Shown here piece by piece: positions 3,698 to 3,763 of a stretch of 25,134 bases of DNA. The translations under genes were made by a program, and so were the position numbers. The notes beneath the pieces were generated by a model, which worked only from the letters and a program-made list of their open reading frames with translations, was not told the origin of the DNA and ran no database searches. How positions within the stretch are numbered: the first letter of the stretch is position 1; every line of letters begins with the position of its first letter. Source of the stretch: a virus (lineage: Duplodnaviria > Heunggongvirae > Uroviricota > Caudoviricetes). Where the stretch lies: positions 1-25,134 of IMG/VR virus record IMGVR_UViG_2737471840_000004; one strand, written 5' to 3'.

Positions 3698-3763
3698 ATT
3701 GCTCTAATAAAAAACGTGATGAGTGTACATCGCGTTTTAAAAATATGGAATTATTAGAGCAAT
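3698..3763 (-). promoter_or_regulatory. inverted pair of the ATTGCTCTAATAA motif flanking a putative promoter
   Basis: Plus-strand copy attgctctaataa at 3698-3710; minus-strand copy at 3751-3763 followed on the minus strand by a 17-nt spacer and TAAAAC (3734-3739). The second copy lies in the predicted leader of the 72-aa gene. Confidence 0.45.

Follow-up and report, generated by a model that had tools for sequence, protein, structure and literature searches.

Repeated motifs at operon heads of a P1-type plasmid prophage match the asymmetric operators of the C1 lysogeny repressor

Introduction

The master lysogeny repressor of phage P1, C1, recognizes an asymmetric 17-bp consensus, ATTGCTCTAATAAATTT, of which 22 operators are dispersed over the P1 genome (PMC8546580). 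Descriptions of the operators date back to 1987, and a compilation is given in the 2004 P1 genome paper (cited in PMC8546580); the title of Eliason and Sternberg 1987, as given in the reference list of PMC8546580, calls the operator asymmetric. Binding of C1 represses an adjacent sigma-70 promoter, Lxc (Bof) boosts binding at all operators, and C1 is inactivated by Coi and by Ant1/Ant2, as described in the literature and in the P1 record. Lxc is a C1 corepressor, while Coi is a 1:1 antirepressor (PMC8546580). Both ban and dmt of P1 were found induced by RT-qPCR when a thermosensitive C1 was inactivated in a c1.100 temperature shift (PMC4713147).

P7 and P1-like phage-plasmids such as RCS47 and JL22 possess the same operator-bearing region as the element described here; what sets them apart is their accessory cargo and secondary immunity region, not the C1 operators found here. 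The more familiar lambda CI/Cro and LexA systems resemble P1 in that a master lysogeny repressor occludes the promoters of lytic genes. However, lambda-type operators are clustered in one or two symmetric arrays and are bound by dimeric helix-turn-helix repressors, whereas the P1 operators are asymmetric, mostly solitary, and placed in either orientation at about twenty places in the genome. A short motif repeated at operon heads is also found in the Lpa-dependent late promoters of P1, which consist of a -10 and a 9-bp -22 box, but these differ in sequence (AAATGACTA, present here at 7412-7420), in their activator Lpa, and in exerting positive rather than negative control.

The subject of this analysis is a 25,134-nucleotide stretch of viral DNA (IMG/VR record IMGVR_UViG_2737471840_000004), referred to in its full length as the window. 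A sequence-only reading had noticed a 13-bp motif, ATTGCTCTAATAA, at six operon heads and had proposed one dimeric regulator for all leftward early operons. We find that the motif almost certainly represents the conserved 5' portion of the asymmetric C1 operator, which is 17 bp long and has the consensus ATTGCTCTAATAAATTT. The operators known in P1 as Op68, Op72ab, Op82, Op83, Op86ab and Op88 (Odmt, Obanab, O26, Oppp, OpmgRab and OpmgT in the 2004 genome annotation) recur with the same sequences in the same places relative to the same genes, with no difference of substance, the element being a P1 relative. To judge from these correspondences, the system is the C1 regulon of P1 in a close relative and not merely a similar one.

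A P1-type plasmid prophage

Positions 994-23134 of the window align to phage P1 (AF234172) with 98% identity, in reverse orientation relative to the P1 map, and positions 142-23134 are 99.8% identical to an E. coli plasmid. The operator-bearing region is found in hundreds of enterobacterial plasmids, and in P7, RCS47 and JL22 it shows 97.6-98.8% identity. Judging by these alignments, the window is part of a P1-type plasmid prophage. It differs from P1 in a diverged segment in the pmgT region, in Ead/Ea22-like genes on the left, and in an IS66-family insertion on the right.

The left end (1-1370) is a variable region directly downstream of Op88. It contains an ORF (334-876) for an Ead/Ea22-like protein and a segment, 1110-1370, that gives no alignment to P1; the pmgT start codon maps to 1424-1426, and the ORF at the pmgT position has 195 aa versus 309 aa for P1 pmgT. 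On the right, P1 homology stops at 23134, the P1 equivalent of which leads into upfA, oriR and repA. An IS66-family transposase lies at this end (ORF 23968-25098, DDE_Tnp_IS66, E = 5e-98), and from about 23920 the window is 99% identical to ISEc23-like elements, which occur on many plasmids. Three tRNA genes are found on the minus strand at 14905-14980, 16608-16683 and 16686-16761, with the anticodons CAT, TGT and GTT, respectively; the CAT gene is annotated as tRNA-Ile2 in AF234172. Megablast segments against P1 break at 16341/16508 with a 29-bp overlap in P1 coordinates, leaving about 166 bp (16342-16507) without P1 alignment.

A tblastn search of the window with P1 C1, Lxc and Coi gave no credible match, and c1 in P1 lies beyond the left end of the window. 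Small proteins had been suggested as candidates for the regulator; C1 has 283 aa and is encoded outside the window. Searches for a Pfam family for C1, Lxc or Coi and, by sequence, for a solved relative of C1 found none.

Eight operators at six control regions

All six copies of ATTGCTCTAATAA listed in the sequence-only reading were found again. Five are exact, at 1609-1621, 3751-3763, 17431-17443 and 20953-20965 on the minus strand and at 3698-3710 on the plus strand, and the sixth, at 7371-7383 on the plus strand, carries one mismatch. Two further plus-strand copies, at 17416-17428 and 13249-13261, have two mismatches. Altogether, eight matches with at most two mismatches were present in the window versus 0.66 expected, and none of 100 shuffles reached eight. 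The repeat is real, but the complete site spans 17 bp, of which the 13-mer forms positions 1-13. The list of sites was likewise correct as far as it went but overlooked Op83 (TATGCACTAATTAATTT, 6464-6480, plus strand).

Whether the motif might simply be common in coding sequence was answered by a scan of the P1 genome (94.8 kb), in which it is not a common word: 20 matches occurred at two or fewer mismatches versus 3.2 expected, and every exact and every one-mismatch copy is an annotated operator. The motif is thus restricted to control regions, in P1 by annotation and in the window by its excess over expectation.

For an independent score, the 20 annotated monovalent operators were taken from AF234172, and a weight matrix was trained only on the 12 located beyond the P1 region to which the window is homologous. 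This matrix found eight sites in the window at 19.2-25.8 bits, with the next best at 12.1 bits; nine sites reached at least 12 bits versus 1.5 expected, while the training operators themselves scored 8.5-24.7 bits. The eight sites, at 19-26 bits, all match the asymmetric consensus ATTGCTCTAATAAATTT, and all map onto "phage repressor C1" protein_bind features of AF234172. They fall at six control regions, those of pmgT, pmgR, pmgN/ppp, pmgL/gene 26, ban and dmt:

Op88 (OpmgT): 1605-1621, minus strand; ATTGCTCTAATAAATAT, 24.1 bits; annotated in P1; shares 1 nt with the pap stop codon (1621-1623).
Op86b (OpmgRb): 3698-3714, plus strand; ATTGCTCTAATAAAAAA, 19.5 bits; annotated in P1; situated in the pmgR leader, in the opposite orientation to Op86a.
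Op86a (OpmgRa): 3747-3763, minus strand; ATTGCTCTAATAATTCC, 20.3 bits; identical to P1; overlaps the PpmgR -35.
Op83 (Oppp): 6464-6480, plus strand; TATGCACTAATTAATTT, 19.2 bits; annotated in P1.
Op82 (O26): 7371-7387, plus strand; ATTGCACTAATAATTTT, 22.9 bits; annotated in P1 and identical to it.
Op72ab (Obanab): 17416-17443, both strands; bivalent, identical to P1, where it is the divalent operator controlling ban.
Op72b, half of Op72ab: 17416-17432, plus strand; ATTACACTAATAAATTT, 21.3 bits.
Op72a, half of Op72ab: 17427-17443, minus strand; ATTGCTCTAATAAATTT, 25.8 bits.
Op68 (Odmt): 20949-20965, minus strand; ATTGCTCTAATAAATAT, 24.1 bits; annotated in P1; abuts Pdmt.

Six of the eight 17-mers are identical to their P1 counterparts; Op88 and Op83 show a single base difference each, at a weakly conserved position, which in Op88 reads ATAT versus ATCT in P1. 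Op86a "controls expression of pmgR and pmgS" according to AF234172. Op83 is flanked by the pmgM stop (6487-6489) and the pmgN start (6418-6420). Op82 lies between the divergent pmgL (minus strand) and gene 26 (plus strand), the latter belonging to a rightward tail and baseplate operon, and adjoins a late-promoter -22 box (7412-7420, 25 bp away) and the LP26 -10 (7425-7430), so that the pmgL/gene 26 region is annotated with both C1 and Lpa control elements. Op72ab covers P1ban and the end of dmt (stop 17434-17436). Three copies had been said to overlap the end of the upstream gene. This holds for Op88, by 1 nt of the pap stop, and for Op72a, which extends over the stop and the final codons of dmt; Op86a stops 1 nt short of the pmgQ stop codon, and the ORF at the 20953 copy is not a P1-annotated gene.

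The proposal that one trans-acting regulator serves all sites is borne out, as they are P1 C1 operators by the annotation of AF234172 and by the consensus in PMC8546580. Its scope, "all leftward early operons", was too narrow and in part mistaken: three of the eight sites are on the plus strand, Op82 stands beside the rightward gene 26 operon and Lpa-dependent late promoters, and several of the controlled genes are annotated with putative morphogenetic functions.

Application of the matrix to the P1-divergent parts of the window (1-994, 1110-1370 and 23134-25134) found no new operators. The ninth-ranking site, ATTGCATTAATAATCCT at 13249-13265 on the plus strand, was not accepted as an operator; its score is 12.1 bits, a level at which chance alone predicts 1.5 sites, and it has no annotation in P1. 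It sits on the junction of the ban stop and the dbn start and is present in P1 at 72653-72665, where its conservation can be ascribed to coding constraint at that junction. The P1 record also contains near-matches to the operator core that are not annotated. One, ATTGCTATAATTA (1485-1497), falls in the interval from the predicted c8 promoter to the start of c8, and another, GATGCTCTAATAA (9459-9471), is some 180 bp away from the P1mod promoter. These two might explain part of the gap between the 20 annotated operators and the "22 operators" of the literature.

Conservation among relatives

Related loci, 160 in number, were collected from a viral contig collection; the sequences are related and non-independent, so that the statistics are descriptive, and the loci are 97-100% identical at the protein level. 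Diversity above 0.1 was found at 3% of positions in the 13-bp cores versus 11% of other intergenic positions (Mann-Whitney p = 0.007). No variation was seen at Op86b in any of 80 related contigs, next to polymorphic bases immediately preceding the site (3692-3697), and Op86a shows three rare variants, each in 1-2 of 80 relatives. At Op83, 23 bp match P1 exactly while the sequence on either side has diverged; none of 73 relatives varies at 6469-6487, which is bordered by flanks in which minor alleles reach 20-50%. Op72ab is near-invariant in 77 relatives next to a highly polymorphic 17445-17451, and Op68 is conserved beside a highly polymorphic upstream flank (20966-20978). Sequence identity, positional homology, statistical excess and conservation of the sites are all direct observations.

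Two positions vary within the sites. Position 5 of Op83 (window 6468) is T instead of the conserved C in 18 of 73 contigs, and position 16 of Op88 (window 1606) is A here and in 21 of 71 contigs but C in P1 and in the other 50.

Asymmetry of the site

The motif had been explained by a dimeric regulator, which in the manner of lambda CI or LexA would recognize a symmetric site with each 13-mer as one half. Inverted copies do occur in two places, both noted correctly before: 17416-17443, where a perfect 16-bp palindrome, CTAATAAATTTATTAG, is present at 17422-17437, and 3698-3763, where the inverted pair includes the Op86b copy in the pmgR leader. However, the two pairs are spaced differently, with an 11-bp offset in the former and a 49-bp offset in the latter. 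The 17-mer is not self-complementary, with only 6 of its 17 positions agreeing with the reverse complement, and it is termed asymmetric in the literature (PMC8546580). At the overlapping 11-bp offset, an inverted partner is lacking for five of the eight sites in the window, the partner scores there being -8 to -16 bits, and Op72a/b is the only clear overlapping pair. Neither dyad symmetry nor a partner at constant spacing was found in P1, where 15 of 19 strong operators score negative for an overlapping inverted partner. C1 is also said to have been found monomeric in solution by Dreiseikelmann et al. in 1988, and a literature search on the C1 monomer state and DNA looping found no usable statement. 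A dimer reading a symmetric site is therefore very improbable, and "dimeric" is the part of the earlier proposal that has to be given up.

Relation of the operators to promoters

Promoters were transferred from the P1 annotation for P1ban, Pdmt, P2pmgT, PpmgR, PpmgN and P1/P2pmgL. Those that bear on the -35 question, all on the minus strand, are as follows:

P2pmgT: 1592-1620, minus strand; predicted sigma-70 promoter, -35 at 1615-1620 and -10 TAAAAC at 1592-1597; transferred from P1.
PpmgR: 3734-3762, minus strand; predicted promoter, -35 at 3757-3762 and -10 TAAAAC at 3734-3739; transferred from P1.
P1ban: minus strand; -35 at 17437-17442 and -10 TAATAT at 17414-17419; given in the P1 record without the qualifier "predicted".
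Pdmt: minus strand; -35 TTGTTT at 20944-20949 and -10 TACCAT at 20920-20925; from the P1 annotation.

The arrangement described before, TTGCTC followed by a 17-nt spacer and then TAAAAC (twice) or TAATAT (once), is present. The further suggestion that TTGCTC serves as a -35 agrees with the P1 annotation of P1ban, P2pmgT and PpmgR, in which operator bases 2-7 are the annotated -35 at Op72a, Op88 and Op86a, 17 nt from the -10, but does not extend to Pdmt, whose -35 is TTGTTT at 20944-20949. Op68 shares one base with this hexamer, and the remainder of Pdmt is downstream of the operator. Op83 comes shortly after the predicted PpmgN and is on the other strand. With the P1 annotations transferred, several of which are predictions, the sites overlap or abut sigma-70 promoters in either orientation. 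A generic sigma-70 scan of the window did not call the annotated promoters, P2pmgT and PpmgR included; the TAAAAC -10 of these two lacks the conserved final T, and TTGCTC matches the -35 consensus at 3 of 6 positions.

The three copies with TTGCTC 17 nt upstream of a -10-like hexamer could be taken to mean that the motif is a shared promoter element only, either a -35 region or part of a phage-specific promoter class, with no repressor site. Such an element would be hard to reconcile with Op86b, which lies downstream of a predicted promoter in a leader, with Op83 and Op82, which are on the strand opposite to their accompanying promoters, and with Op68, whose annotated -35 is another hexamer, downstream of the core. 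The match of TTGCTC to only half of the -35 consensus and the conservation of all 17 bp, beyond one hexamer, also argue against it, and we regard a purely promoter role as scarcely credible. Operators of C1 that partly coincide with promoter hexamers remain the preferred reading.

The hairpin between Op86a and Op86b

A hairpin followed by a U-run occurs at 3711-3738 on the minus strand, between Op86a and Op86b, and the operator arms can lengthen its stem. This hairpin is plausibly a terminator for pmgQ read-through. A transcript from the predicted PpmgR would begin inside it. It is highly improbable that the inverted copies serve as arms of RNA stems, in terminators or leader structures, rather than as protein-binding DNA: the fold of 3684-3770 (minus strand) does yield an extended hairpin whose outer stem consists of the operator arms (-23 kcal/mol, z = -5.7), around the inner hairpin and its U-run, but it concerns one locus at most, the other six sites being single or overlapping and unable to form such stems, and the 5' arm would be missing from RNA begun at the predicted PpmgR. 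An RNA role at Op86a/b could at best be an added function of what we take to be C1 operators.

Op83 as a possible bivalent operator

Op83 is annotated as monovalent in P1. It is possible, though on balance unlikely, that it is a third bivalent operator (6464-6491) of the Oc1ab type, with the following additional feature:

Candidate weak second half-site of Op83: 6475-6491, minus strand; CGTGAAATAATAAATTA; speculative, not annotated in P1; overlaps Op83 at the bivalent 11-bp offset.

This inverted partner scores 10.2 bits with the 12-operator matrix and 6-7 bits in the scoring of overlapping partners (6.2 bits with a 19-operator matrix), higher than the accepted weak half-site Oc1b at -1.6 bits. 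Omat, Oppp/Op83 and Oc1a form an "xATGCAC" subclass, with A at positions 2 and 6, and share a common extended pattern, ATGCACTAATnAATnTATTATTTT, each continuing into ATTATTTT; in the accepted bivalent Oc1ab, the strong half is provided by Oc1a. The extension of Op83 (6481-6487) is invariant in 73 relatives. By chance, a partner of at least 5 bits is expected for about 0.3 of 17 operators, and the bivalence of Op83 is for that reason only a lead. Op2b/Omat in P1 may be another such bivalent operator. If Op83 were bivalent, the stretch occupied by C1 would be about 28 bp long and would take in the probable start of transcription from the predicted PpmgN.

Proposed mechanism and significance

We infer that C1 regulation also operates in the present element, with c1 outside the window. 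C1 would be made from a gene elsewhere on the element, bind each operator, and block the sigma-70 promoter that the operator overlaps or abuts; in three cases the operator bases TTGCTC would double as the -35 hexamer. The Lxc (Bof) corepressor would strengthen this binding, and the antirepressors Coi and Ant1/2 would reverse it, so that all controlled units would be switched on together at induction. Operators ahead of both ban and dmt are present in the window.

The finding itself is already known, the C1 regulon having been mapped in 1987-2004; a literature search on pmgR, Op86 and other operator and gene names returned unrelated papers only. Reading of the sequence alone recovered a real regulon motif together with the overlap of operator and promoter, and the follow-up puts right both the stoichiometry and the extent of the regulon, with Op83 as an additional site. 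The sites would mark the window as a P1-type prophage in which pmgT, pmgR-pmgS, pmgN-ppp-pmgQ, pmgL/gene 26, ban and dmt are predicted to be silenced by C1. Since P1-like phage-plasmids carry resistance genes in Enterobacteriaceae, the intact immunity operators provide useful context, not a discovery.
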